Below, one piece after another: positions 16,617 through 61,884 of a DNA stretch of 64,000 bases. The stretch's first letter is position 1. Each line of letters begins with the position of its first letter. Position numbers and translations under genes: made by a program. Below the pieces are notes generated by a model that had not been told where the DNA came from, did not search any database, and saw only the letters and a list, made by a program, of their open reading frames with translations. Origin of the DNA: Marsupella aquatica (Eukaryota; Plantae; Marchantiophyta); NCBI GenBank assembly GCA_973895155.1, contig OZ316892.1, positions 23,351,168 through 23,415,167 on the forward strand, given 5' to 3'.

Positions 16617-17749
16617 TCAACCTGTTGTGCAACTTCTATTGAGAGCCCTATTTGCGTTTGAAAAATGGCTGTCATAATGTCTCCAAAGTTTTGAGATGGC
16701 CCGGCTCCATCTCCTGCAGATCCTCCGGCTCCCCCGGCTGCTCCGGCTCCCCCGGCTCCACCTCCTGCCCCTCCTGCCCCTCCATTGTTCCCCTCCATAG
16801 CCACACTAGTAGAAATTGGGGCAATTTAGACCAAACCTTATAGGACTAAGGCCACTAAGTCCTTTTTGGCAACCTTAAATGACTCGAAACCATTGCCACA
16901 GTTCACATGAACACTACAAGAGACTGTGAGTGCTTTTTGGTTTTGGATAAGACTATGAAAAATTGTACCCTACTTTGAGAATGTATGAACACTCTAGCAC
17001 ATGATGGGTTGTAGGGTTTAGTTGTGGGCTTTAATTTGATAATGGGCATATGGGGGGGGGGGGGTGTTGCACAATTCATTTGACGACCTCTTTACCAACA
17101 TCCCGCTAACTTGAACACGTACAAACGGCGTAAATGTTCAAATTCCCTAATTTTGAATATACTCCATAGTGGGTTTGGGGGGGTTTAGGGCTCAAGGGTG
17201 GGCCGGTTACATGTGAAGGGTGTGGGGGGTCACCACTAAAGGGGTTTAGGGGGGTTTATATGCCAAGGGTGGGCCGGTTAGGTCTCAAGGGGGTGGGGGT
17301 CAGTAAAGGGGGTTGTCCAGCCAGAGAACACTCAATTGAAATAGTGACGCAGCGATGTAGGGTAAACGAATACGGACCGTGGACCCTAACTTGTTTGCTG
17401 CCTTGGGAGGATCTGGAGAGCTGGAGGCGACATGCTTCATTGATCCTGAGCTTGCAAGTGGCGCTCTAAACCGGCCCCTGGCATTGCAAAGACAGTCTGG
17501 CCACAGTCGAGTTGTCAAGACGTTTAGGCGGTTTATATGTCAAGGCGTGGGGGTGGCTGGGTTTTCACTAAAGGGGGTTTAGGGGGGGTTTACATGTCAA
17601 GGGTGGGGGGTTTAGGGTTAAACCACAACTCGGGGTATATAATGACCCCGAGCCCTGCCCGAGCGCGTGCCACTCTGCCCGCTGGGTCAGCGGCCAGTTC
17701 TCCCCCGGAGGACTAACCCAGCGTTAGTAGGGCCACCTCCCCACCAGCC

Positions 17750-18850
17750 CTAGAGCCCTCGGTTGCCCCTGTGAGCTGCTGCCTGCCTCGCCCTCCGCTG
17801 CCCCTACAAGCTTCTGCCTGCCTCACCCTCCGCTGCCCCTGCAAGCTGCTGCCTGCCTGCCTCGCCCTCGGCTGCCCCTGCGATCTATTGCCTGCCTGCC
17901 TTGCCCTCCCCTCCTCCTACGAGCTGCTGCATCCTCGGCCTCCTCTTGCGAGCTGCTACTCTGCTTCTCTGTTGCATGTCTCTCCCTCTACCTTTGAGCT
18001 TATGGCTGCCATAGCCAGCCACTGACTGCCGCTGCTTGCTGCGCCCTTGGCTTCCCCTGCTTGTTGTGCCATCGGCTGCCCTTGCTCGCTTTTGCTCACT
18101 CCTCAGCTGTTGCTGAATCGATTTGCTACCGGCTGTTGCTCGTTGCTTCCTCGGCTGATGCTGCTTCAACTCACTACACCTTCAACTCGCTGCTGAAGCT
18201 TGCTGCTGAAGCTCGCTGCTGCCTCGTTGCTGCCTCGGCTGTTGCTGCTGAAGCTGAAGTTTGCTGCTGCCTCGGCTGAAGGTCGCTACTGCCTTGCTGC
18301 TGCCTTGGCTGTTGCCTTGGCTGTTGCTGCTGAAGTTGAAGGTTGCTGCTTCAACTCACTGCACCTTCCCAGCTGAATGTGTGCGCTCCTCCCTTCGACC
18401 TTACGGCTGCCATAGCCAGCCACTGTCTGCCGCTGCTTGTTGCGCCCTCGGCTGCCCCTGCTTGTTGTGCCATCGGCTGCCCTTGCTTGCTTTTGCTCAC
18501 TCCTTGGCGTTGCTGAATCGATTTGCTACCGGTTGTTGCTTGTTGCTTCTTCGGCTGATGCTGCTTCAACTTGCTGCACCTTCTACTTGCTGATAAAGCT
18601 CGTTGCTGCCTCGTTGCTGCCTCAGCTATTGCTCCCTTGGCTGTTGCTCCCTCGGCTGAAGCTCGCTGCTGCCTCGGCTGTTGCTGCTGAAGCTGAAGCT
18701 CGCTGCTTCAACTCGCATCTTCCTCCCAGCTGAAAGTGTGCCCCAAATTGTTGTTGCCTCGGTCCAAGCTCGCTGATCTTGCTGAAGCTTGCTCACTGCT
18801 GCCTTGGTTTCCCTCACCAACCTAGATCGCTGCTAAAGCTTGCTCACTGC
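17750..18850. repeat. GCT/CTG-rich low-complexity region with an internal duplication (about 17995-18250 vs about 18400-18700)
   Basis: Repeated GCTGCTG and CCTCGGCTG blocks. The overlapping ORFs here share repeated peptides and look non-coding. Confidence 0.75.
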
Positions 18851-19377
18851 TGCAGGTCAAGGGTCGCTCGCTCCATTCCTCAAGCTCCTTGTTCATGTCA
18901 TTGTGCCCACATTCAATGTTGAGGATAGAGGTGTTTTTCCAGCTTCAGGTTCACCAGGGAAGCTCCAACTCACTGGTCTTTTCTCCTCCTTGTTTACATT
19001 GTATAACATTCGATTAGGAGTCTGTTGATCTCGGCCTCATTGTGCTGTTGCGAGTTGGTAGCCCTTTTGCCCGAGTTTGTGTTGGGTTTTTTTGCTGCTG
19101 CTGTGAGCTTAGGCATTTCTACTGGAGTTTCAACTACGATTTTGTTGTTGTTACTCTTAGTCTCACTGTACTCCCAGTCTCCACTGACAGTGATTTTCTG
19201 GGCTCTCGACATCCATTTTGGCTCACATCCACGTTTGAGCGAACTTCCTAATCAAATTTGCTAGCGAATTTCTTCTCTGCTGCCATATTGTGATTGCAAT
19301 GTCAAGTTTCGAGCAATATGAGAATGTTGGGCAGCAACAGCATATGTGATATGTGACTGTTGCATTTTATCAGGAAC

Positions 19378-19776
19378 ATGGCACCAATGAGAAAGCTGAG
19401 AGCCACATTGACTGAACGTGACAATGGGAGCTACATCTTGAGTTGGCAGGATCCTACTGATGTTGACAATGCTCCACCCGTTGTCCGGATTGTTACATTG
19501 GAACAAGTCCAAGCTACATTTCCAGAGTTCTGCACTACAATTTCAGAGTGTCATGTGGATCTCAATCCTGCAGTCCCGATTGAACAGTTTATCATGTGCG
19601 CAGCATACAGTTATGCTGAAACTATCATGAGAAGGAAAAGATATCAGGTCTACACTCACTTGGCTTATGTAGCTGGGTTTTCTGATACAACCAAGTTTCC
19701 TGAAGCTGTTGAAGCTTGTGTGAAGGCAACTTGGCATGATGAAGGGGAGGAATTTGTAGGATTTATCCCAAATTAG
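19378..19776 (+). CDS. KolX-like protein (132 aa) with a P2X7 C-terminal 'ballast'-like motif
   Basis: The C-terminus RRKRYQVYTHLAYVAGFSDTTKFPEAVEACVKATWHDEGEEFVGF fits the RY.AYR...G...R..LP.CV...IR..FP...G.Y.GF pattern of KolX/P2RX7_C. The gene is convergent with the transposase, and AATAAA lies at 19835. Confidence 0.7.
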   Translation: MAPMRKLRATLTERDNGSYILSWQDPTDVDNAPPVVRIVTLEQVQATFPEFCTTISECHVDLNPAVPIEQFIMCAAYSYAETIMRRKRYQVYTHLAYVAGFSDTTKFPEAVEACVKATWHDEGEEFVGFIPN

Positions 19777-19850
19777 GAGTAGATAGGCTTCTGCTATGTT
19801 TCACTGTTGTTTGAAATTTTTGTGAAGAGCTACTAATAAACTTTTTGCAG

Positions 19851-19966
19851 AGTATAACTCCTGCTGGTTGGCAGCGGAAGGGGTTCAATTCCCCTTGGGA
19901 GTACATGCAGTAGAACTCCTGCTGGTTGGCAGCAGAAGGGGTTCAATTCCCCTTGGGAGTACATGC
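19851..19966 (+). ncRNA. Two tandem 58-bp tRNA-like units lacking an anticodon arm (mascRNA-like fold)
   Basis: Each unit has an ACTCCT/GGGAGT acceptor stem, a GCTG-GTTGG-CAGC D-like arm and an AAGGGG-TTCAATT-CCCCTT T-arm. Confidence 0.5.
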
Positions 19967-20109
19967 GTTACAATACCATAAAAGTTCCCTTGGGATGTGT
20001 CCATATTCAATGAAATCAAAATGAACAAGGTTGCCAAAGGGACTCAAATGATTACTATCTCTCAAAGCTGTTTTTTGTTGTCATATGTCATTCAATAACC
20101 ACAAACTTT

Positions 20110-20540
20110 ACTCATTCCCTCACTTGGTTCAAGTCCTAAAGTTTTATCATTCCCTCACTTGGTGGTCAAGTTATAAGATTGTCTGGCCACGAATGAAAAA
20201 ACTTGACAATTTTTTTTTTATAAAAGTGTGAAAAGTTATGAACTTTTCACATTCACTCACTTGGTGCTAAGGTTATAAGATTTTTTGGGCCACGGCATGA
20301 AAAAACCAAACTACAAAGATAATCATTCCCTCACTTGGTGCTCAAGTTATAAGAGTTTTTGGGCCACAGCATGAAAAAACAAGACTACAAAGATAATTTA
20401 TAAAAGTGTGAAAATTTGGCATAGCACTCCAGGTGTTTGTAATAGTGTACCCCCCCAAGCAGGTTTGCTAACCCTACCCAAAAAGGTTGGAATACAAGTG
20501 GTTTGCTAACCCTATCCAAAAAGGGTGGAATACAAGTCAT
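20110..20540. repeat. Degenerate tandem repeats between the convergent Kolobok genes
   Basis: CATTCCCTCACTTGGT-like units occur four times, and GGTTTGCTAACCCTA.CCAAAAAGG.TGGAATACAAGT occurs twice. Confidence 0.75.
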
Positions 20541-20864
20541 GCCAGGTCTCAGCCCTCCTCAAGGAATCACCCCTGCAATAGTAAACAATAAATTAGAATT
20601 GAGGTACTTTCACACTACAATGAATTGTTTCCAAAAAGATTGAGTCACAACTTTTCACTTACCTGAGGTATGTTAGCTGAGGTCATATATGGAGGTGTGA
20701 CTCCATATGTACGCTGACCTTATATAGAGACACTACTTGGGTGGTAATGTTTGAGCAACCAGGATCATCCTGCCAAAAAAACTCATTGTAATTAGAATTA
20801 CCATGAGCATAGAGTTTTCTTACATTTTATGTTGGCAATCATATTTATAGAGCAGTGTGTTACC

Positions 20865-23800
20865 TCATGGACGAGTCACACCATAAATGCGTTCACTTGT
20901 TGCTTCCTTCCAACTCGTGGTCCGGTCCACCAATACTCGTGTTCGAGGAGGGCGCTCCCTCACAGTAGTGTTCACAGGTGTGCGATTGTATACCTTCCAG
21001 ACATGTCTTCTGATATTCTCGTTCCAATCCATGGCAGCACAACTCAAACGGGCCTCATGACTGGCTGAGAAATGAATGCGCTTGGTCGCATACTTGCCCA
21101 TCACGGAATGGTAGGTCTCTGACATGAAATTCTCTCGGGCCATGGTATAAAACCTCATCTTCGCGGGAGTAATATATTTTCTCATGAATTTTTGCATGGC
21201 CTTATGAGTCTCTCCACCTACATATACAAAAAGTCATAAAATATCAACAATGCTAACCTAAGTTATAACTCACATTAAAATTGCATAATTAGTAAAAGAT
21301 TTACCATTCTCATAGTAATGGTCAACTTGGATGGCTCCAGGCTCCCCAAGATGCTGACAAGGCCGGTCAGATAGTCCTGCACATAATCTGTGATCCCCGG
21401 CCCAATGATCACCACAGTTGCCCAATTCGAAAGCCAAGGATGCAGCATCTCCACCACTGCATAATGAACATTGAAAGTTGTTATTTTTGTCAAAACTAAA
21501 TCATCACATCTGCAACAATTACTACACTTGGATATGTAAAAGCCAAGAAGTCACACCATATTAGCACTATGCATACCTGTTCTTACACCGACGACAACAT
21601 ACGTAGAACCATGTCTTCAGCTTTGTGGCAATGTTGTGCTGAGACAACTCTGGGTACTTGAGGCCACGTGTCGGAATACGTACTAGTTCTCCAAGAGGCA
21701 GCCCACGCATGTCACCTACTTTATGGATGAGTGCTTCCTTCCTAAGAGTAGAGTACCCTCTCACTCCCCTACTCTTCAACCAATCCTGTAACTTCTTAGT
21801 TGTGACTGCTTGCAACTCAGAACGAGATGCAGCAGTGTCAATGTCAATGGTCACAGTGTAGGTTGCTCTCACCATCTTCTCCACAAACTTCTTGATGAGA
21901 TTTTTGGCCTTATGCCACAAGTCTTTCTGGTTCCTAATCCCCATGTCCTCCACAATATTATCAATAGTGGCTTTGTCATCATGGATAACCTCCGTGATAG
22001 AGATCCCTCCCTCTCTCAAATTTTCCAATGCTCTTTCAGTACCCTTGTCCTCCATGTGCCAAGCATTTCTCTCCTCCCTCCTAGTAATTGTCACCATTTC
22101 AATTACCCTATTATCGTCAACATTGAGGATAGAGGTGGTACCATGAAAACCGCTCCGAGAAGAATCCCATCGAGTATCTAAGTACACTAGTAACCCAGGG
22201 TCTGTCATAAACAAAGCACACACACATGCACTATATATGAGAAACAGGTCAACTAAAACTTTGGCTAGAAGAGCATGGTCCTTGAATACCCCAAAAAGCT
22301 GAAGGACCTAAAACAGATAATTACTTACCAAGCTCAGTTGCTCGCCGCTGCTGAATATCATCCTTCAATTCCTGCCACATGTGCCTTTTATTTTCTTCCC
22401 ATTGTGCCTTCACAGCTGCTATCCATCCACCACTAGGTCGGCCACGACCACTCTGAAAATCATGCCAATGAGCTGCAGTAGGAACATGTAAACCAAGATG
22501 TGCAGCAACAGTAGCCAAAGACGTATAGGTGTGGCCAGCGCAAAGGGTGGAATGATACAACTGGGGGGTAATCATAGGAGAACTCCTCCCAGGCTCATTG
22601 TCACCAGTAACAAAAGTCCAGCCATGGCCATCCTCTCCACAACCAATGTGAATCGACCACAACTGATGCAACTCCCTCACTCGTTGAACCCTTGGACTCC
22701 TAGAACATCCATGTATATGACACCAAGGGAGTAGCCTATCAACAAAAGTAGCCAACAAGTTGCGATCAAAAAATGCTACCCTAGCAGGTTGACGAGGCGT
22801 TGCTCTACGAGTCGGGACAAGGTCCGGAGGCTGTGATGGCTGAGAATCAGGGATATGATACTTGTGTGAGTCTGTTTGTGCTGGTGGCCGAGGCCCAATA
22901 TCTGATGATGGCTGAGGATCAGGTGCAATGAATGGCTCCTGGTAGAAGAAGCCCACATACATATATCAAAAATTGTTATTCAGAAATTTGGAATTTGTAC
23001 GGGGAAAGGCAAGGAGAGTGTCAAAGGGAGGGGGGTCAAACCTGAAAGGTATCCTCATTCCCAATGTTGTTAGCTCCTAAAGCTGTAAGAGACTCCGGAT
23101 CATCATCTTGGTAAATGGCATCATCTTCTGCGTCTGATCCGTATTGCTCGGCAATATGCTCCTCCAAAACTACATCCTGCTCAAGAGGTGAATCCCATCC
23201 ATCCTAGAAACAATGTGGGGTAGAATAATTAGTACCCTCAAATATGATTTTACCTAAACCATAAACTTCAAGGGAGTAAAAAAAATTGCTGTTGGTCCTT
23301 GGGTATTGAAGTTATTTTGTTGAAAGACCCAAAAACCTGAACCCAAAGGCATGACTCACATTATGGAATGCACCCTTGTTTGGTTACTACAATGCTGCAT
23401 AACATAACAAAATAAAGAAACTGTTAAGAGTTGGGATACCAATGCTTGGAATAATGTGTCCACTCTTCATTAAGGTGTGGCTTTATATAGCCATGAGGTT
23501 ACATGGTCTAAGGTTAAAGGTAACCTTAGCTTAGGGTTATATGTAAACTATGGTTTACAACACTCCCCCTTGGTTAGTTTATGGGGGTGTAAAGTAACCA
23601 TGTGTTTAACCCTAAGGAATTAAATTGGTATTCCCTTTGATGTAGCCTCATTAAAACCTTGCTGCTTTCTTCTCAAGGAAAGAGTACTACCATCATTACA
23701 TGTGGGGATCCAATCTGTATCCATTTATTTTATGTTTCCTATAGTTTATGGGGGGTAATTATTTGCCATTATATGTGTAAGATGCAATTACCTATCCATT

Positions 23801-26800
23801 ATATGGAATTACTCGTGTAAGATGAACCTGCCTCTATGTAAAATTGTAACCTAAACTAAAACTCGCTCACAAAGGGTTCGTTAGTTCGTAGTTTGTCGAC
23901 GATAATAGAGACGGTGTGTATCGATCGGATTTCCGTGTCGCTTTTTGTTGGTGTGTGCGATGTGTTGTTGTTGCAGCTCTGTGTGCTTGGAGTCTCTGGC
24001 GATGCTTCTCTAGTGTGCTGCGCCATGGCTTTTTGTTTCGCATCCTGGTTGGTGTTGTTGCGGAGCCGACTGAATTCATGGTGGTAGCGTTCAGAAGTGA
24101 GCTGCTGGAACTTGGGAAGCTGAGCTTTAGGTAAACGCGCTCGTTATTTGTGTGCGGGGGTTGCGACACTATGGGCGGCAACTCGTTCCAGGTTCTGTCA
24201 TTTGTTTCGTTTCTTGCGTTCGTCCTTGGTCGTCGTTGAGGTATTTCCTTGTCTTTCTTGGAGTAATGCTGAAAGCTTTATCATTCCTATACCTGCTACA
24301 TGTTCACGGTGGGTAGCGGGCGGTAAAGGTTTCGTAAATATATCTGCTCTGTTATCCTGTGAGCGAATCCATTCGACTTGTATGTTCTTGCCTTGTTGTT
24401 CTTGGGTAAAGAAGAACTTGGGGTCTATATGCTTCGTTCTTTCTGTTTTCATGATGCCGTTAACAATTTGATCGATGCAGGCTTTGTTATCCTCATAGAT
24501 GACAGTGGGCGTAGTGATCGGTGGTTGTCCAGTGCTGGTTCTGATGTGGTTAATCATGCTTCGGAGCCAGATTGCTTCTCTACATGCCTCGTATAATGCG
24601 ATGACTTCCGAGTGGTTGGATGAGGTTGTGGTCATAGATTGCTTAGTGCTACGCCAGGATATCGCAGTTGTGCCTTGCAGGAAGACGTAGCCAGTTTGAG
24701 ATTTTGAATCTTGTGGGTCTGATAGATATCCTGCATCAGTGTATCCGGTGAGGGTATCAGTGGTGTCTTTTGGGAAGAAAAGGCAGAGGTCAGTTGTACC
24801 TTGGAGATATCTGAATATCCGTTTGAGGCCGTTCCAATGGCGGATTGTTGGTTGAGCACTGTGTCTGGCGAGGAGGTTAACTGAAAATGAGATGTCTGGT
24901 CTGGTATGGTTCTCTAGGTACATCAGTGCCCCCACTGCAGATAGATAAGGCTTCTCTGAGCCTAATATGGGTTCGTTTTCCTGTCTGCGCCTGAACATAT
25001 CCTTTTCAGGGTCAAGAGACCTTAGCTCCATTGGTGTCGATACCGGGTAGGATAGTTGCATATTGAATTGTTTGATGATTTTCTCTGTATATGTTGATTG
25101 GCAGATGAAAGTGCCGTTGTGGAGGTGCTCGAATTGTAGGCCTAAGCAGTATGTGGGTTCACCGAGGTCTTTCATCTTGAATACTCCTTGTAGTGTTTTG
25201 ACAGTTTCTTTGGTTATAGTAGGTGTCCCGAATAGGTTCACATCATCTACATATAATGCTAGGATTATAAATTCCTGCTGTTCCCGTTTGATGAAGATAC
25301 AGGGAGCTATATCTGTATTGGTGAATCCGAGTTTAATCATCTCCGTTTGGAACGTTTTATACCATTTCCTTCTGCTCTGCTTTAATCCGTTTATAGAGCG
25401 TAACACTCTGACTGCTAGGGTTGGTTGGCCCTGTCCTGTATTTCCAGTTTGTTTCTTCTGCATATATGTTGTATTGCCACTTTGCATGAGAAGATTTTTA
25501 ACCTGTGTATCAGGTACTATCTGTCGTATGCCCGACATGATTTCTGGATTCAGGTTCTAGGACGTCTCCCCCTGAGTATGTTCTCTCACTCTCTAGATCA
25601 ATGCCTGAGGTGCTTTCATGTATATTTCAGTGTCTAAGGTGCCATACAGGTACGCAGTTACCACGTCCATTAGGATATTAAGAAGTTGATGTTGTATGGA
25701 AAATGATATGAGGTATCTATATGTTATGGCGTCCATCACGGGTGAGTATGTAAGATCATAGTCCCTGCCTGGGACTTGTGTATACCCTTTTGCCACTAAC
25801 CGTGCTCTGTATCGTATGACTTCTCCTTTAGCATTCCGTTTTCTGATGAATGTAAAGCGGGAGTCAGTGTAATTGTTACCTGGGGAAGCCTGTATGAGTG
25901 GTCGGAAGACTTGTCGCTTGATGAGGGCATCCATCTCAGTGTTGATGGCTTCTTGCCACTTTGGCCAATCTGCTCGCTTTTGGGCTTCCTTCAGGGTAAG
26001 TGGATCTGGTGTATCACTGGTTATTTCTTGTACTATGTGGTATACGAATTGTGTATTTATGTCTATGGAATGTCTATTGTATATTGTCCCGTATGGTTAT
26101 ATTGAATGGATATCTCTTCATTGTCCATAATATGGGTATGGGTAAGGTCTGGGTGTACCGTACTTAGTGTGGTGACAGGTTTCGTTGAGGTGGGTTTTCC
26201 CTGCCGTGGGTGTACGTCTTTTGCGCCTGGTGGTCTACCCCTTTTTGTTCTTGGGGCTGTCTCTGTGGCGAGATCCTTGGATATCTGCACGCGTGCAGGT
26301 ATGTTTGCTGCTTCAATATGTGACCTTGTCACGTTTGCGGCATCATTAAATGCGTCTGGGATTTTTGTTAACATCTCATTGAGGTGAAGGAGTCGCCTCA
26401 CTTCTTCATCTGCTCTCTTGCTTCTCGGGTCTTGGTTGATGAGGGTCTGGTTTTGCCAGTTTAAGTTCTGGCGGTTTTGGTTATATAGAGTTGATCCACT
26501 TGATAATGCAGGGAATTGGTCTTCATAGAAGTGACAGTGTTGATATCGAGCTTTGAATAGATCGGATGTCGTGGGTTCCTATGGATGTAGAATCGAATCC
26601 TACATATATGCCTGGATGTCTTTGGGGTCCTATTTTGGTCTTTTTAGGCCCTAAGGTCGGTACCATGACCTTGCACCCGAATATGCATAGGTGTGATAAT
26701 TCGGGGGGCGTTCCGAATGCTAGGTGATAAGGTGTCTTCGAATTATATGCTGAAGGTCTGTATTTCAGTAGTGTTGATGCATGGAGGATGGCGTGGCCCC

Positions 26801-29800
26801 ATGCTGATAATGGTAAATTTGAGTGCATTAATAGTGGTCTGGCAATCATTTGGAGTCTTTTAATAACGGATTCTGCTATTCCATTTTGAAAGTGTACGTG
26901 GGGTATAGAGTACTGAGTATCAATCCCTGCTGTCCAGCAGAAGTCGTCGAAGGCTTTGGATGTAAATTCTCCTGCTCCGTCAACTCGTAATATGCGTGTG
27001 GGGTGCTCAAGGAACGCTTTCAATTTTAAGATATGCGCAAGTATTCTTGCGAATACCATATTACGGGTGGAGAGTAAGGAAATTTGTAGCCATTTTGTTG
27101 AGGAGTCGATGAGTACCAGGAAATATTTGAATGGCCCGCTTGGAGGGTCGATGGGGCCGCATACATCTGCATTGAGCTGCTCCAAAAAGTTGGGGATCTT
27201 GTAGACTATTTTTGGTATCGATGGGCGTGTTATCATCTTGCCCTGTGAGCAGGCCATGCACTGTGGAGCCATGGCGTTTGGTTTGGCCGTCTGTGGGATT
27301 CCTTTGGAGTCCCTAATTATTCTGGTGTACATATTAATGCCTGGGTGGCCGAGTCTGCAATGCCAGGTATATGTGATATCCGATGTATCCTTTTCAATGT
27401 GGTATGATTGTATCTTAGCTGCATATAGTCCAGGTGGGATTAGTGGTAAGTTCTCCATAATATGTGGTAATCCTTCCTTGTTCTGTACTAGTTGTAGGAT
27501 TTCAGTTTCGCCTTGTTTTGCTGTTCTTAGTTCATAGTTATTCGCGCGGATATCCTGAAAGTTGATGAGGTTCCTGGTAGCTGTAGGGGCGTATATAGCT
27601 GCTGCTATCGTAATTTTGGTCCCGCCTGGGAATATAATATGCGCTTTTCCTTTGCCTTCTTCTATTTGGTTGGGGCCTGCGATAGTTGTCATCGGTCTAG
27701 ATGATGGGGTGATAAAGTCAAAATATTTGCTTTGTGTCAGTATTGTATGTGACGTTCCGCTATCAATAATGCATATATTAGGGTCAGTTAATGGTGATGT
27801 ATACAGGTGTGAGATAGCAGTATGTGTTTCAATTGGGGCGTCTGCAGGATCTTGGTATGTCGCTATATTTTCTTCGATTTCCATATAGTTGCCTTGTGGG
27901 TTTTGTCTCGTTAATATGCGTTCATTTGTATAGCGTTGTGCCACTTGGTCAGATGCTCTGCATATCTTCCTGATGTGGCCGATCTTACCACATCTGTAGC
28001 ATAGTTTCTGATTATCGTTTGTTGGGTGATTTTGTGGGTTTCGCCATGTGCCCCTGCTTCTGTTGGTGCCACGGTTCCAGGTAGTTCTTTGTGTGGGGAG
28101 CGGGTTTCTGCCCTGGTAGGGGTATCTCCCTTGTCCCCTGAATTTTCCTCTGCCTCCCCTGAATGGTTTTCTTCCTCTTGGGTTGTCTCGTCGCCCGTCT
28201 TGGTAATTTCCATAGTGTGATTCGGGTCGATTGGGTGGTGGTTCTGATCCTACTGGTATTTTTCTTGCGTTATGTAGGGCTACAATTTGTTGTTTCTCTT
28301 CGACTAATAAATGTGCAATGAGGTCGGAGTAGGTCGTAAAATTCATATTTCGGTATTGGGTTCCCAGGGCTATATTAGCTTCTGGGAATGTTGACAGTGT
28401 TTTATCAATGCGGTCGTTATCATTTACTGGGTGGCCGCACATTTCTAGTTGAGATGTGATTCGGAATAAGGTGCTGTTATAATTTGCAATTGTTGTGTGG
28501 TCCATGACTCGCAGGTTGTGCCAGTCCCTGCGTGCTTCTGGGAGCCATATTTCGCACATGTGGTCGAATCTGGATTTGAGTTGATCCCATAGCTTGCGGG
28601 GATTTACCTCATTCATATATTCGTTCTTCAATTGTGGTGATAGGTGTTGCCTCAATAGAAACGCGGCTTTAGCTTTTTGTTTGAGGGTTAGATTTGTATC
28701 TGTATATAGTGTATCTTCAATTTCTTGAAATGCAAAATATGTTTCGACATCTGTGATCCATGTAAGGTAGTTTGATCCGTCTACCTTTAATGCAGGGAAG
28801 TGTAATTTCTCTATGGTATTCATTCTTAATACAATTTGGGATTGTAATGTTTAGTTACAATTGAATATGGAGGTTGCAGGGATTTGGTATTGGTATACCA
28901 ATTATGGTTGTCGTGTGTCTATCCTTGGTCTTCGGTATGATGAATCTTCGATGGCGCGTCTCGTATTAAATTGCGCTCAATTGGATGTGTAGCGATTTCT
29001 AGTTGATGGGGAAAATTTTGGGCTAAACAAGCGATATGGAGTAATTCTAATTGGTGAGGTGTTCTACATGTTCTCAGTGCCTGTACATTGCCCAAAATAG
29101 CGATGTGCTAGCGCTGAGAGGGGAAAAGAAAGGTGGGGGTCGGTTTGGGCGGTTATTGGGAGGAGGGAGAAAAAAAAGTGCCTTTTAAGAGTATTTTACT
29201 CGTGAAAACATCAAGGTGATCGAATTACCAAAAGACTGATTTCAGAAAAAAAAATGACTAGAGCATACTCGTGCTGATAACGTGTTAAGAGTTGGGATAC
29301 CAATGCTTGGAATAATGTGTCCACTCTTCATTAAGGTGTGGCTTTATATAGCCATGAGGTTACATGGTCTAAGGTTAAAGGTAACCTTAGCTTAGGGTTA
29401 TATGTAAACTATGGTTTACAACAGAAACTATGATTCACACTATTTGTAAGGGGAGAGTACTATGTGCTTGTTGGTATGGTGGTTTATAATGTGTGGACAT
29501 TGGTAGTCACAGTTTATGCAAGTATTGGACAATGTGTTCTTGTTGCTATTTACCAGGGCCTTTGTTATTGCTTGACATATAGATTATAATGTGTGGACAG
29601 TACCCTGTGGTGCGTCCCATGGCTCCCTAAACCCAAGAAACCCCCCAGCTCAAGCCGATTCCCGCAGGTTTCGTGCTTGGCGAGGCCGTTTCCGCGGCTT
29701 AGCGGCATGGGACGCTGCTAACCTTCTACTACTACTATTAACATTTTACACACATATACTGGACAGATCCTTCATCGGGTCATGAGATACGTAGCCGGCC

Positions 29801-40304: not shown

Positions 40305-41889
40305 AAACCCACAAAGTATACTTAAAGACTACCCTCCATAACCTGTTTAGTCCTTCCCAATGACTCACCATCGCACCCCTTAAAAGACTGAAAATGACTC
40401 ACCAAAGCTACCCAAACAAAGACTCGTGAACAAGTTCTATAAAGGACTCAGTTGATTATAGTAACAAAACATATGACTCATAGTCCTATAAAGGACTGGA
40501 GTCGTTTCCGAGTCCTATACGGTACTACATAGTCGTTTAATGGGGTCTAAATACCCCCCGGTTTCTACTAGTGCCATAAGCTCCTCCCGGCCTTCAATTC
40601 CAGTTCGCGACCACGCACCTCCCCGGCTTTTGCCAAAGAAAACATCTCCCGACGCTCTTTCGATGCAAAGCCCGACTAAGGAGTGGCACTTTGGTCGGGA
40701 AACCTAAAACTTGTCCAACTATGGATCCGATTCTTACAGCATCGGAACAAGCGATGCTATAATTATCGGAAACATAGTGGATCATGTCCAATTCTTACAA
40801 CATCGGACCCCTCTTGTTAATTCCTTGTATTACTCATGTCCGAAGTCTTTTCCGATAGAATAACTATGGCAATTAATTTGGTTGTATGTTTGATGACCCT
40901 ATGTTGGTTCTATGTGTTTAAGCAGGGTTTTAGGGATAAGGTGGACCGTTGGAGCCACGGTCCCTTCTCATTGTGTGGTTTGGAGATGGTTGGTATGTAT
41001 AGATGTTGCGAGTTATATTTGAGAGTTGTGTGGTATTTACATTGTGACATTTTGGGGGCAAAATATGGATTCACCTAGCTAGCTAACCTTATGCATACAG
41101 TGACATGCCAAATTTTGCAGTTCTTTTTTGCAGAGGGTTAAGTCACTCAGTTTTTGCAGAGGGTTAGGTTGCTGAGCTTTTTTGGGGGTCCATTTTTGTA
41201 ATGCATCATGCACAGCGAGAGCCTGCACGTCTGAAAGGTATGGTTGGACCACTCTAAAAGGTTCTGGAGGTGAATGTTGGGAGGTGCCCGACATAGGTCG
41301 GCCCCCTAGCCAACTATAATTATGGTCATACAGAGGTTAATTATTGATCTTGTTCCACACTAATTAAGTTGAAGTGTTCTTGTGCAGTAATTTCAGACTT
41401 GTCTTAGCATATAGTCTAAGGTCAAGATCCTAGTTGGCACTGCAGAGCGCGGGTCTCATTAAGGTATTATTGATTTAAACATTTTTTTGTTTTGCCTTAA
41501 GACATATATATGTAAATCACAATGGTGCGGATTCTAAAATATAATGACATTGTGTATGGATGATGGGCAGATGTCCAGTTCTGGGAGTTCTGAGTCGGAC
41601 TCAGACTCAACCTCGTCATCCCCCTCCTCCTCCCCCTCCTCGGACTCAATGTCCTCCTCCTATAGGACCTATTCCATGTTGGTGTGTTAGATGTAAAGGC
41701 ATGGTGGTTCGTCAAGCCTGGGAAGCCATTGAGCACATTGAGAACTATGGCTGACATGAGGGTGATTTACCTGGATATTCTGCTCGCCAGGTATGCATCA
41801 TTTATTGCGCTTGGAGACATTGATATGCACAAGTTGTAACATTGCACCCATACATTTATTAATTGTTGGTATTTTTTGTGATTGAATAG

Positions 41890-51302: not shown

Positions 51303-54300
51303 TTACTCAGATCCAGAAGTTCTCAATTCTTGAAACGAAATATCCCTAGATTTATCTCCTAGCGGGGTTCTAGTTGATCCATTCTCTTGTTCTTGCTCTT
51401 TCTCTTCTGCCAAAAATTCAGTCAATCGGATTTTGATTCGATCTACTGTCTTTTTGTACAATGTATCAGATTTTGTCAACATGAAGTTGTAAGCAAAAAC
51501 AGTCGTTGAAGATAAATCAAGCTCTTGGTGAAACCATATTGGTTTCAAAGTTCCTTTCCCACGACCACGTTTCTTCTTTTCGTAGTTTAAGACTTCTGGT
51601 AAGTACTTGGCTTTCCAAGGATCTGACCCGGTTTTTGGAGCATGCCATAAAACATAAATCATTTTTGGAATGTTGAACTCGTCGCGCTGGTCAATTCTTT
51701 CCACCTTGGCCACCCAAAATGTTTCCGATTCTTCTCCAGCAACAGAAATATAAGTGTTGACTTCAAGATCCGAAAAGTCTCCTTCCATATTCTCCTTCTC
51801 TGCATCTATCTTTCCTTGATTCCGATAAGGACCCACGTATATATCTCTGGTAGGTCCGTATACTCTCTCTTCAATTTCCTCTTCATTGACAAGGACTCTG
51901 GGAACTTCAGCAGCAACAGCAATCTCCCTTTGGGAGCGTGGCCATTGAAAAGGGAAAATCAATGGTCTTTGATCAAGGAGCAAAGATTTATTCAATTCCC
52001 GTTGCTCTTCAAAAAACATTCTCCACCAGTTCACTTCCTCTTCTGAGAATAAAGTTTCAACTGCAAGTATTCCCTTTTGAATCTCATTTAACGAATCATC
52101 CATCTCCTTCAAAGTCATTCTTGAAGAACTAGACATATTTGGTTGAGTCCTTGTAACGTTCTTATCCCCCTTTTTGAAAAGGGGTAATCCGGGAGCACAA
52201 CCCATCACCTTTTCTGGCTCCTCTTCCCTCAAAAATTTCACGCCTCCGTCAGGTTTCCAAGTTGAGTCCGTGGAAAACTTCTTCCCCCATTGGGTTGGAA
52301 CTTGATTTTCCAACTTGTCAAATGCAAATTTGTACTGGTGGTGGAAGGTAACATTTCGAATCCTTTCAATGACTAAAGGTGGATCTGAGAAGGCATATTG
52401 ACGGAAATCATATGTTTCCTTTAAAAGAGCGATATTTGGTTGGGGTTGATATGATTCACAAATAATATCACATAGGCTTTCGTATGTGAATGCCTTAAAC
52501 CTTGCTAGTCGTTTAGAAAATCGACTGAACATTTGATCTATTTGGTCGTGTGTGTGTCCAACCAACAAGAATCCTAGTTTGATTTTCCGAAAAACCTTTC
52601 TTCGAATCAACATATGAAGATAGGCAAAGAGTAAATTATTTTTATTTTCTCTACTGGTATTATCAAGTTGAAGATAGAGAACAGGCGGCAAGCCACCAGG
52701 CTTTTCTTCCCATTCGTGAAACACCCTTTGCAGGATTGTGACTGTCAAGTTTCCATCATTATGCAATACAGGATAATTAAGAAACACTCTTGAAAATAGT
52801 GCACCATTGAAAACCAGGCATCCGACAACGTGCATTTGGATCAAACATGTTTCGTCCACCGATTTTGGGGGCCGCGGCCAATGAGGCAACCTTGTCTTCT
52901 TCTGATCCATCCCATCAATGACAACTCCCAAATATTTATCAGAATTTGAAAAACATTTCTTACGATGCTTCGCGAGTTTCTCACGTTCTTTGGATTGTTG
53001 GTCTCTATGTTTTTGTAACATAATTTCCCCTCGCCCTGGAAAAACAACTTGTTAGTTTCTTAAAAAAAAAAATTAGAAATCATGTGTTAAGCCATATTCT
53101 TGAAACAAAAACTTGTCAAACTTGTAAGCAACTTACTCTTTTCGGTCTCCGAGACAGCTTTGTCCCGAATTGATTTGAACTCCTCGCAATCCGCGCAAGC
53201 ACTGAATCGATTGACTGGAGGAATCTTCACATGACCAAATTCTTGAACCCAAACTTTCAAGAATTGTCGATAGGATATTTTTGAAGATTCATCAATCTTG
53301 GCATAGTTGGAGTCGTAGATCTTCCATACCTCCAGCTTTGAATAATTATCCGGTAAATGTGAAACTTCTTTATTTGGCAATGTTTCCACGCGTGTCTCAA
53401 AAAACGACCTAAGCCAACTGACCAAGACTAATCTTTTAACAGATGGAGGGCGTCCAACTGGTTTAGAATATCCTAAGTCTTGGTTGTCTAATTTCAAAAT
53501 TCTATTTAATCTATGATTGCCAACGCAAAATATAAGCTTGAAAGCTTTCCGACAAATACTCTTTTGACCAAACGTGTAAGATATAGTCTGCCTCCCTCCT
53601 TCATTTCCGTCTCGCTTTATAAGCCACTGCAAAGATAAAGATCGATCCTGAGATTTCTGCCTCAAAAATTTAGAACGGGCCTCACGAATTTCTTTTGGAG
53701 ATAGACTTAGGAGACAATGACTCTGACAACAGTACTTACTATTTGTTTTCTTGATATCCTCCTCTTTCAACTTTGTTTCACACAAAGTGGCGTTGCTCGT
53801 ACGTTTGTAACGACTAGATGCCACCGGAACATCATCATCCTCCCCACTCTCCGAAGACTCGCTTTCATTCGATGATGAAATGGTCACCAACATTTGCTTC
53901 TGAACATGCCTAGATTCCAGACCTGCAGCCTTCGGAGATGGAGGCTCTTCCTTCACTCTATGCACCCTTGGAATACCTGGGCGTATTTCAGAAATCCCTC
54001 CATTACCGTGTAGGGACCCTTTCAATATTTTCCTAGGGTCCCTCTCCACCAGGTTGGTTTCCCTGTTTGAGTTTCCGTGACTTGATCCGCTCCCTGCCCC
54101 AACACCATGACTCCTAGGTAAAACTGAGGAACGCACATTAGAATTCTTTTCTGGAATACTTTTCAATAACACTGGTCGTCTAGTTTCTTCCCTCATCCCC
54201 CTGTGAAATGTTTCCGACGTTGGCTTACCAAAGGTTTTACTTTTTGGCATTTGCTTCAGCCGCTGAACACTTTGCAGACTGCAAAAATCTCTGTCATTTT

Positions 54301-59025: not shown

Positions 59026-61884
59026 ATGGCAGCCGCTCGTGTACACAATACAAGTTTGGGGAACAATCAAGACACACCATTGATGACCGCCAGACCCACT
59101 TCTGCAACTAGGAGTGTTTCTAGACAGCCAATTAGACGTCTTCAAGTTGCTAGACGAGGCCTCACTAGTTTTAGCGGAGTTCAAATTATGTACAGAGAAC
59201 CAAGAAGTCCAATAGTGTTTTCTGATGAGTCAAGTGAGGAGGAAGATGTTGAGGAAAATAGACAGTCGCAAGCCATTGCACAAGTTGTATCAGAATGTTT
59301 GGAAACAAATGAGGGCGAGAGTAGCTATAGTCATCTCTTTAGTGATCCGAGAAATCCCACTCTACCTTCAGATGATAGTAGCTCAAAAGATACTAATGGT
59401 TCTATTCCGGAAGTTGCAGAGAGACAAGAGAGTGAAAATTCACTCCATGGATTTCACAGTATGGAGAAACAAAAGGAGCTTAGCAAGAAAGTGAGAGACA
59501 AGCTTGTGAGGAAAGATAATGTTACAAATCAAAATTTAAAGACAAAAAAAATGAAAGAAGTTTTTAAGTACCATGTTGTGATAATTTGTGTTTGAGAAAT
59601 TTTGGTCTAGATTTAGTGACAAAACACCGAACCTTCTATTATGGCTTATCATCGACCAAGAAGAACATACTTCTAAGGGGCTGTTTGAAAAGTGGGCACG
59701 GTGGTCCAACCGGTTACATTGTTGACGGGAGATCTTTTTGTCGAGAAGGTTTCAAGAAATTATTTTCCGTTGGAAATAATCGGCTGCACAGAATCTCAAG
59801 GAATACGTTTTCTCGTATTCAAAATGACACATTTTGCAAGGAAAAATCGGTTACTCATCTTTCACTAGTTCAATGGTTGAATGAGTTTTTCATGTCAAAT
59901 GTTGAAAGTCTTCCAAACAAGGACATCTTCCACTTACTAGACAATTGGATGAAAGCTAAAGTATTTGATGCTTTCAAGACTGATACTATGGTGCGGAAGG
60001 AAACCGAGATCACATATTCTTGGTTTGTTTGCATCTGGAACAAAGAGTTCCCCAGGGTGCATATTCCAAAAAATAGTCGCTTCTCCACATGCGGTCCTTG
60101 CATAGAGTTCAAAGCACTTCGCGACAAAGCAGTACTTGAAGTAGAAAAACGTAAGTTGTGTCTACCTTTAAATAAGTAAAGGATTGATGTTAAGTACTAC
60201 ATTATTTACTTGTTTGGTTTGGTGATGCGGTTATTATTGACAAAACATTGACGTTCATTTGACAGGAAAATATTCAACACTTTTGAACCAACATCGGAAA
60301 GCACAAGGAGTTGAGAGGGAGAAATTAGCAAAGCACCGAAGCAAGTGCTATAAGAGTCCAGAAAATTATTTGGGGATCTGCATTGATGGTATGGATCAAA
60401 AAAAGACTGAGTTGCCACATTTCACTAGGTGCCCCAAAAACATGGACGAGAAGTACTTTATTCCGGTACATGTGGTGGGTTGTTTGGTGTTCAATGGACA
60501 TTTGACATCAAAAGTGTTTTTGAATTATCCAAACATTCACAATGACACCAACTTGACAGTGCATGTGATGCAACATATTTTAAATAGTTGGGAAGGTCCA
60601 CTCCCTCCAGTGTTGTATCTACAACTTGATAATACCCCTCGAGAAAATAAAAATAAATTTCTCATGGCATATTTGAATATGCTTGTTGAGATGAGGGTTT
60701 TCCAAAAGATCAAAGTTGGTTTTCTTTTGGTTGGACATACCCATGATCAGATTGACCAAATGTTCAGCAAGTTCTCCTCAAAATTAAATAAGCAAAAAGC
60801 TTTTCGGGTGGATAGTCTTGCAGACATTCTCAAGGATTCGTACAATCCAAAGGCTGAGATAATTTTTGTTGAAGAGGTTGCTGATTTCAAGAAGTTTGTG
60901 TCGGATAAAGACCAACCCAATGACATGGGAGGTATTGGGCATGTTTTGTGTCCTCTACATGGTATTAGTGGTCAAAAGCAATTTAGGATGAAGAGGGTTG
61001 TAGGAGAGAATGGAGGAACTTCAACTTTGTTTCACGCAAAGCATCTTTCTAGCACTCAAAGTTGGGGAGAAGCAGTGGAGTTCCTTAGATACATCCCCAC
61101 ATCTACCATGTGGGTTGCTGCACAAATGGCATTGAAATCTACAACCAGAGCAACAGTGGAGAATGATGAACATGATGACGGAGGCAATGGAGACGAGCGT
61201 CTTCTCTACAACCATGTTGCAGTCCTGGAGAAATATCGCAAATCAATTGAAGATGGATTCAATTACTTTGATGATGAGGATAAACTTTGGTGGCTCCATT
61301 TCTTTGACAACCAGAAAGAAGTGATTAAACACCACTTGAAGGCAGGACAATGGGTTTTTGATTGGACGTGGCCAAAATCAAATATTGGAGTAGAGACTCC
61401 AAGAAATGCACTTCCCCCACAAATAGAGCTAGCCTTGCTAGATAAAATTGCAGGCGCAACAACAGTCATGTACTCTGGAACAAGGAAGAAGAAAGCAGTC
61501 GAGGGAGACTTCAAAGATCTTGAAGTGAACACTAAATATGCAATGATTTGCGTGGCTGCATATAGGGATCCAAACAGCAGACCATTTTGGATGACAAAAG
61601 TCATAGATATTCTATCCAAAGTACAAGATGTTCCAGAGAACATCAAAATTGTATGGTATACAATGGATTCGCGAGAAGGGTCTGCTATGGAAGGTCAATA
61701 TTACCCTGAAAAAGCTGCATCCTCTAACAAGTTACTTGAGGACACATTGTGCCTCTCAGAAACCGCAGTTTATGCATATAATTTTGCACTGCTCTCAAAC
61801 AACACGCTTCCAGTACAAACAAAGCGAATCATCCAAGCAGCAATGCTCGACACGGAAATCATTGATGCAGATGACTGTGACTAG
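59026..61884 (+). CDS. DUF7869 / Sola-like DDD transposase 2 (frameshift near 59545-59570; intron 60151-60265)
   Basis: Same motifs as transposase 1 (CCDNLC, FCREGFKKLFSVG, FSTCGPC, IDGMDQ, LQLDNTPRENKN, VGHTHDQIDQMFS, FWMTKV...IVWY). The phase-1 intron is at the identical position after DKAVxExEK. Confidence 0.85.

Follow-up and report, generated by a model that had tools for sequence, protein, structure and literature searches.

A mascRNA-like tRNA mimic behind a liverwort transposon gene as a candidate mRNA 3'-end signal

A convergent Kolobok element and its neighbours

The 64,000-nucleotide stretch of liverwort DNA that we analysed, called the window throughout, holds a Kolobok-type transposase gene that converges with a small open reading frame (ORF), and behind the small ORF stand two near-identical tRNA-like units, the first 80 nt from its stop codon and the transposase gene about 900 nt further on (Table 1). 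Four GT-AG introns join five transposase exons into one open frame of 632 aa; no 5' start was found for this frame. The motifs YLDTRWDS, HME, HDDK, DLWH, DHRLC, RPC and SETYH give the spliced frame a DDE signature with DxxH and a downstream zinc finger, as compared by eye with the available portion of the Kolobok alignment in PMC9587614 Data S5. When longer proteins were searched for the transposase core, no match came up, and the single-sequence structure model of the transposase was poor (pLDDT 40). The DDE with DxxH, the downstream H/C zinc finger and the small second gene are shared with the two-gene Kol0/Kolobok0 elements as described in part of PMC9587614. The plant hosts of Kolobok listed in that portion are chlorophytes and rhodophytes only, whereas the element at 19378-23200 resides in a liverwort, a land plant. 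No convincing pair of TTAA-flanked RR...YY termini or TIRs was found in the window, and the accessible part of PMC6004289 says nothing on gene orientation.

Table 1. Coordinates of the element, its tRNA-like units and the adjoining LTR element (window numbering)
Feature	Position	Strand	Basis or remark
Accessory ORF, 132 aa	19378..19776	+	KolX-like by position and by-eye C-terminal motif; liverwort relatives
CTAATAAA motif, then weak 5-bp hairpin	19833..19853	+	sequence; loose ends of relatives, by eye
Tandem duplication enclosing both tRNA-like units	19851..19966	+	only some element copies have it
tRNA-like unit 1	19857..19903	+	fold, Rfam alignment, T-arm scan
Unit 1 acceptor stem	19857-19863/19896-19902	+	
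Unit 1 D arm	19864-19874	+	loop GUUGG, GG at 19870-19871
Unit 1 linker		+	4 nt, between D arm and T arm
Unit 1 T arm	19879-19895	+	loop UUCAAUU
Unit 1 discriminator A	19903	+	
tRNA-like unit 2	19915..19961	+	differs from unit 1 by one change, in the linker
Kolobok-type DDE transposase	20865..23200	-	convergent with the small ORF; predicted spliced frame
Transposase exons	23200-23042, 22938-22329, 22201-21577, 21456-21305, 21217-20865	-	
Copia-type LTR element	23422..29423	-	identical 141-bp LTRs; upstream of the first transposase exon found

With E values of 0.001 or lower, the small ORF has 39 relatives. Among the ten that were looked up, one comes from Calypogeia fissa and four from Riccia sorocarpa. 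The first-pass annotation had named this ORF KolX, a label that its position supports, as does its Y..G...P...W.D..G.F.GF ending, which by eye resembles that of piggyBac-2_GrCh_2p, a cysteine-poor KolX-like protein (PMC9587614 Data S6, in part). However, KolX, the second protein of Kol0, has seven conserved cysteines (the ballast fold), and an alignment of 30 small-ORF sequences contained no conserved cysteine set. The ORF had no Pfam match, and PDB sequence and fold searches were without a clear match. Its predicted fold is confident (pLDDT 87.5) but had no clear counterpart by Foldseek or VIA-align (highest Z 5.8, with rmsd 4.9 and 81 aligned), and an Atlas search gave no usable one. Since the cysteines are lacking and the Pfam, PDB and fold searches were without a clear match, we treat "KolX-like" as a lead.

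Several further features surround the two genes. In the region between them (20103-20397), a CATTCCCTCACTTGGT-type motif occurs four times, in part within 74-nt repeats, and its copy number differs among relatives, whose joints skip 74 and 260 nt. At 20210-20251, a T10 run lies beside an 11-pair hairpin, so that the transposase strand reads hairpin and then A10 tract; this is a possible 3'-end feature of the transposase mRNA, for which 19776-20870 contains no AATAAA. A 38-nt tandem duplication, 95% identical, occupies 20462-20537. The Copia element is flanked by a GAAAC target duplication and is a recent insertion. Inverted ends starting with CACTA (16804-16832 and 40544-40573) match at 83% over 30 nt, and a CACTA element may enclose both the Kolobok and the Copia element. 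Telomere-like GGGTTTAGGG motifs followed by CTG-rich low-complexity repeats fill 17171-18815. Two related long ORFs, at 51303-53051 (- strand) and 60241-61884 (+ strand), have a GMDQKKT motif in common and 67% DNA identity over 464 nt, and are probably transposon-borne.

Fold and conservation of the tRNA-like units

The units lie in a direct duplication of 58 nt (19851-19908 and 19909-19966; family D19 of the repeat search) whose copies are 97% identical and whose first copy begins 10 nt after an AATAAA hexamer at 19835-19840, which agrees with the earlier description of two near-identical 58-bp units about 10 bp after AATAAA. The copies differ at two positions, both outside stems; this sparing of the stems is not significant, since about half of the positions are unpaired. 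Folding prediction gives the 47-mer at 19857-19903 an acceptor stem, a GUUGG-loop arm and a UUCAAUU T arm, with no anticodon arm (MFE -20.8 kcal/mol, z -2.35, with 6 of 200 shuffles equally good). The acceptor, GTTGG-loop arm and TTCAATT T-loop proposed in the first-pass annotation are thus predicted for both 47-mers, with the qualification that unit 2 folded alone has an MFE structure that differs from the tRNA-like fold. In a context of 241 nt, the acceptor pair probability is about 0.3 for copy 1 and 0.04 for copy 2, while copy 1 keeps its D arm and its T arm at a probability of 0.9. Two registers are possible: the 7+5 bp of the Rfam alignment (-15.2), with a 7-bp acceptor, a 3-bp D stem directly on the acceptor, a 4-nt linker and a 5-bp T stem, and the more stable 6+6 bp (-20.8). 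A 12-bp acceptor/T stack is common to both.

The folding energy of the 47-mer alone is modest, and its rarity lies in the tRNA-specific layout. A scan for a perfect T arm with a 7-bp acceptor matched only units 1 and 2 on both strands of the 64 kb. By this rule, which was drawn up after the unit had been seen, 100 simulated windows of equal dinucleotide make-up held 0.09 sites per window, and in none of the 100 did a site carry a D hairpin with a GG loop set immediately on its acceptor. The unit does not have the features of a tRNA gene or pseudogene (ARAGORN found 0 tRNA genes; cloverleaf anticodon arm and A box are absent), nor those of a tRNA-derived SINE, for which no A box, tail or flanking duplication was found at the locus.

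All or part of the stretch is present in six public contig runs, none of them an RNA run, which come from organisms A, B and C in four studies; the best of them may include the source of the window, and five of the six were used for comparison. We compared window positions 19300-20500 with the contigs of four runs at 80% likeness and found that 8 of 14 joint rows (10 contigs) link the end of the ORF (19754-19776) to the unit region over 67-161 unalignable window bases. These ORF-unit joints fall on four contigs of run X1, three of X2, three of X5 and none of X6, the short side has fewer than 30 letters in 3 of the 10, and among the contigs listed none links ORF and unit in organism C. The listed ORF pieces of the joint contigs are about 84-88% alike to the window. 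In a 946-nt contig, equated between two comparisons by length and depth, the ORF end, spacer and unit together (257 bases) show 36 other letters and 12 gaps, and the 52 bases of the unit only 4 differences.

When unit 2 was used as a 60-nt query against the contigs of four runs (organisms A, B and C), 54 contigs fitted at 80% or more, with 39 of them less than 95% alike and 24 less than 90%; these last may include broken stems. Among the 30 of these 54 records that were listed, the alignment begins within 19912-19916 in 21 cases and stops within 19957-19965 in 26, with unlike flanks. The limits of similarity lie near the ends of the acceptor stem and around the predicted cut sites 19915 (RNase P) and 19961 (RNase Z), and some alignment ends coincide with contig ends, including those of a 49-nt contig spanning 19913-19961. 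The unit-2 alignment suppresses differences near its ends and tabulates no within-unit substitutions, and none stands among the 40 of 234 rows listed for the 19300-20500 comparison; because no within-unit changes are listed, the stem pairing is not backed by covariation. No retention fraction is obtainable from these counts, because contigs with less than 80% likeness to the unit, and hence copies that lost it, are invisible to the comparison.

A homolog whose ORF is 54% identical (P0002) has a frameshifted tail in which 12 of 17 residues agree with the translated unit; the changes imply one or more mismatches in each of the T and D stems, and this frameshifted copy is probably decayed. Metagenome, viral and prokaryote collections, scanned by pattern for further DNA copies, gave 0, protein-led scans yielded no confirmed locus, and a protein search with the unit's translation had no match at E up to 10. 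The contig alignments indicate that the unit is conserved across diverged copies while the adjacent spacer drifts beyond alignment. The first-pass annotation had counted absence of the unit from other copies against its reading; we find it kept behind the ORF in diverged relatives. The tandem joint occurs in 2 of the 54 contigs fitting unit 2, and a near-identical contig in run X5 skips 58 nt and carries a single unit; the doubling is therefore local or copy-specific. Judged from these contigs, the tandem state is incidental and the second copy is a local duplication.

Upstream of the predicted RNase P site, the 5-bp hairpin ends at a distance of 3 nt and the AATAAA hexamer at 16 nt; in the window fold, this hairpin has a probability of 0 and a longer one, 19821-19849, prevails. 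The loose ends of relatives, read by eye, have CTAAT upstream in several types; two types retain AATAAA and two others have it altered, so the hexamer is not invariant. In the types that keep it, the distance from the end of the hexamer to the unit is 17-18 nt (16 in the window copy), and a 5-bp hairpin with differing arms, TCTCC/GGAGA and CCTCT/AGAGG, follows. Positions 19833-19850 are also legible as a branch point with TTTTTGCAG, resembling a 3' splice site, which is kept in some relatives only.

Proposed function and its alternatives

We lean towards the view, which we hold as somewhat probable, that the unit is a PRORP/RNase Z cutting signal ending the small-ORF mRNA before the transposase gene. 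Pol II would read through the unit on the + strand, the D-loop GG would dock onto the T loop as in mascRNA, nuclear PRORP would cut 5' of 19857 (and 19915), and RNase Z would cut 3' of 19903 (and 19961). The 47-nt RNA so released may receive CCA, and the upstream piece would become the mRNA 3' end, 16-18 nt past the AAUAAA-like hexamer and small hairpin; since a triple helix is absent, this new end would probably be polyadenylated. Cutting would limit read-through into the convergent transposase gene, and hence double-stranded RNA and silencing. Plant PRORP is reported to act on substrates that have no anticodon arm but to depend on G18, C56 and a purine at position 57, and nuclear PRORP2/3 are reported to cut a snoRNA precursor (PMC5039416, in part); all three residues are present in the unit. 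Since related copies keep the unit while neighbouring DNA drifts, it likely marks a cut by the tRNA-trimming machinery of the host, as at the end of human MALAT1. The 3'-processing signal put forward in the first-pass annotation is favoured by fold and conservation; the cleavage itself is a prediction, the AATAAA that went with the proposal varies among relatives, and the tandem state is incidental.

Because a canonical AATAAA stands upstream here, ordinary cleavage and polyadenylation could yield an equal end without RNase P. The same hexamer, 16 nt upstream, could drive ordinary cleavage and leave the 47-nt RNA as the product, or the fold could serve 3' UTR stability, translation or cell-to-cell movement; a role in RNA other than end cutting fits the conservation of the unit in diverged contigs equally well, and plant tRNA-like structures have been tied to mRNA transport, stabilisation and translation (PMC12371167, in part). 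We nevertheless consider such a role unlikely. A full 12-bp stack that carries all the PRORP determinants named above should be a target for cleavage in the nucleus, so the unit would hardly persist in an mRNA, and the upstream hexamer would place it outside the mature message. Conservation also bears on whether the unit acts as DNA, either as a lone TFIIIC-binding B box at a gene boundary or by driving Pol III transcription of a small RNA. The B-box insulator suggested in the first-pass annotation retains its box, since GGTTCAATTCC at 19882 and 19940 matches the B-box/T-arm consensus, with a third match at 20126. However, the similarity among relatives covers the whole 47 nt to both acceptor strands, beyond the 11-nt box, no A box matches in 19600-20000, and the distance from D-loop GG to T54 is 14 nt in the unit vs 36 in tRNA numbering. 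With the first downstream TTTT at 20071, 110 nt past unit 2, there is also no nearby Pol III terminator, and we regard a DNA role as quite unlikely.

The unit could finally be a neutral tRNA or SINE relic, captured once, whose apparent conservation reflects detection bias. In favour of such a relic, searches at 80% likeness see conserved copies only, the Rfam score is below the cut-off, and the stem pairing is not backed by covariation. Yet the spacer has drifted past alignment in the very contigs that keep the unit, a mascRNA-like linker-less junction is unexpected from simple deletion of an anticodon arm, and the locus offered no tRNA to ARAGORN and no A box, tail or flanking duplication. 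A neutral relic is, in our judgement, very unlikely.

Significance and comparison with known systems

Extending the cutting-signal reading to liverwort Kolobok transposons at large, we find it possible, at somewhat under an even chance, that they end a nuclear protein-coding mRNA by a minimal mascRNA-type mimic cut by PRORP and RNase Z. If true, vertebrate MALAT1/NEAT1 would be joined by a further class of nuclear Pol II transcripts that mature through the tRNA machinery, and a signal of mascRNA shape behind a protein-coding gene of a plant nuclear transposon would bring mRNAs, and plants, into that pathway. Nuclear PRORP would gain a natural non-tRNA substrate of 47 nt, and the unit could serve as a very short processing cassette. 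Cutting at the unit would also represent a transposon strategy for avoiding sense-antisense overlap, and would illustrate a way in which convergent two-gene transposons may keep double-stranded RNA low. No tRNA-like element in Kolobok or any eukaryotic DNA transposon was found in literature titles and abstract starts, and the word "tRNA" is absent from the main text of PMC9587614. A search of its four supplements with six T-arm 11-mers gave one isolated match, and line breaks may hide others.

ENE triple-helix elements stabilise plant transposon mRNAs, with U-rich loops that hold the poly(A) tail (PMC7583470, in part). Like an ENE, the unit would be a structured RNA towards the 3' end of an mRNA from a plant transposon, but an ENE is a U-rich loop gripping the poly(A) tail and the unit is a tRNA mimic. 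The available text of the same paper separates MALAT1/MEN-beta as the RNase P-processed elements, and MALAT1 and NEAT1 are called the sole lncRNAs matured via the tRNA machinery (PMC12941219, in part).

The likeness to mascRNA and menRNA noted in the first-pass annotation is supported by the Rfam search and by the linker-less D arm. The top match of the units is mascRNA-menRNA (RF01684; 32.0 and 32.1 bits, E 0.013 for the whole window), with both units below the gathering threshold of 42.5 bits. Every pair of the model is formed in the alignment except the anticodon-like hairpin, whose equivalent is absent, a 4-nt linker standing against 15 model positions. mascRNA has a 7-bp acceptor and a D arm at 8-18, with the tRNA linker residues missing, and builds its elbow from two D-loop G residues and the T loop (PMC11693755, in part). 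The unit shares with mascRNA/menRNA of MALAT1 and NEAT1 (PMC11693755 and PMC12941219, both in part) a predicted 7-bp acceptor with the D arm directly on it, a GG-bearing D loop, a 5-bp T stem, a canonical T loop, and a position in the 3' part of a transcript that for the unit is presumed to be Pol II-made. It is shorter (47 nt vs 57-58) and, unlike them, sits behind a protein-coding ORF of a plant DNA transposon with an AAUAAA-like hexamer upstream. The MALAT1/NEAT1 3' module comprises a U-rich element and an encoded A-rich tract that runs up to the RNase P site (PMC7583470, in part), forming a triple helix upstream, whereas the 80 nt from stop codon to unit hold two T5 runs and zero runs of at least four A, and cleavage of the unit is predicted only. 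The linker-less junction and GUUGG loop in both would be convergence on a minimal RNase P substrate; that mascRNA itself derives from a mobile element is highly improbable.

Plant mitochondrial t-elements, tRNA-like and carrying GGTTCRANYCC beside an mRNA end (PMC1920247, in part), resemble the unit in this T-arm motif within a tRNA-like fold, in the presumed adjoining mRNA end and, as far as the partial sources go, in being the type of substrate for plant RNase P and RNase Z. They are organellar, whereas the unit is nuclear, since the neighbouring gene has four GT-AG introns and LTR and DNA transposons lie around it; it is carried on a multi-copy transposon, is much smaller and has a mascRNA-like junction. 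By analogy, the unit would work like mascRNA/menRNA and the t-elements, yet it is a member of neither class.
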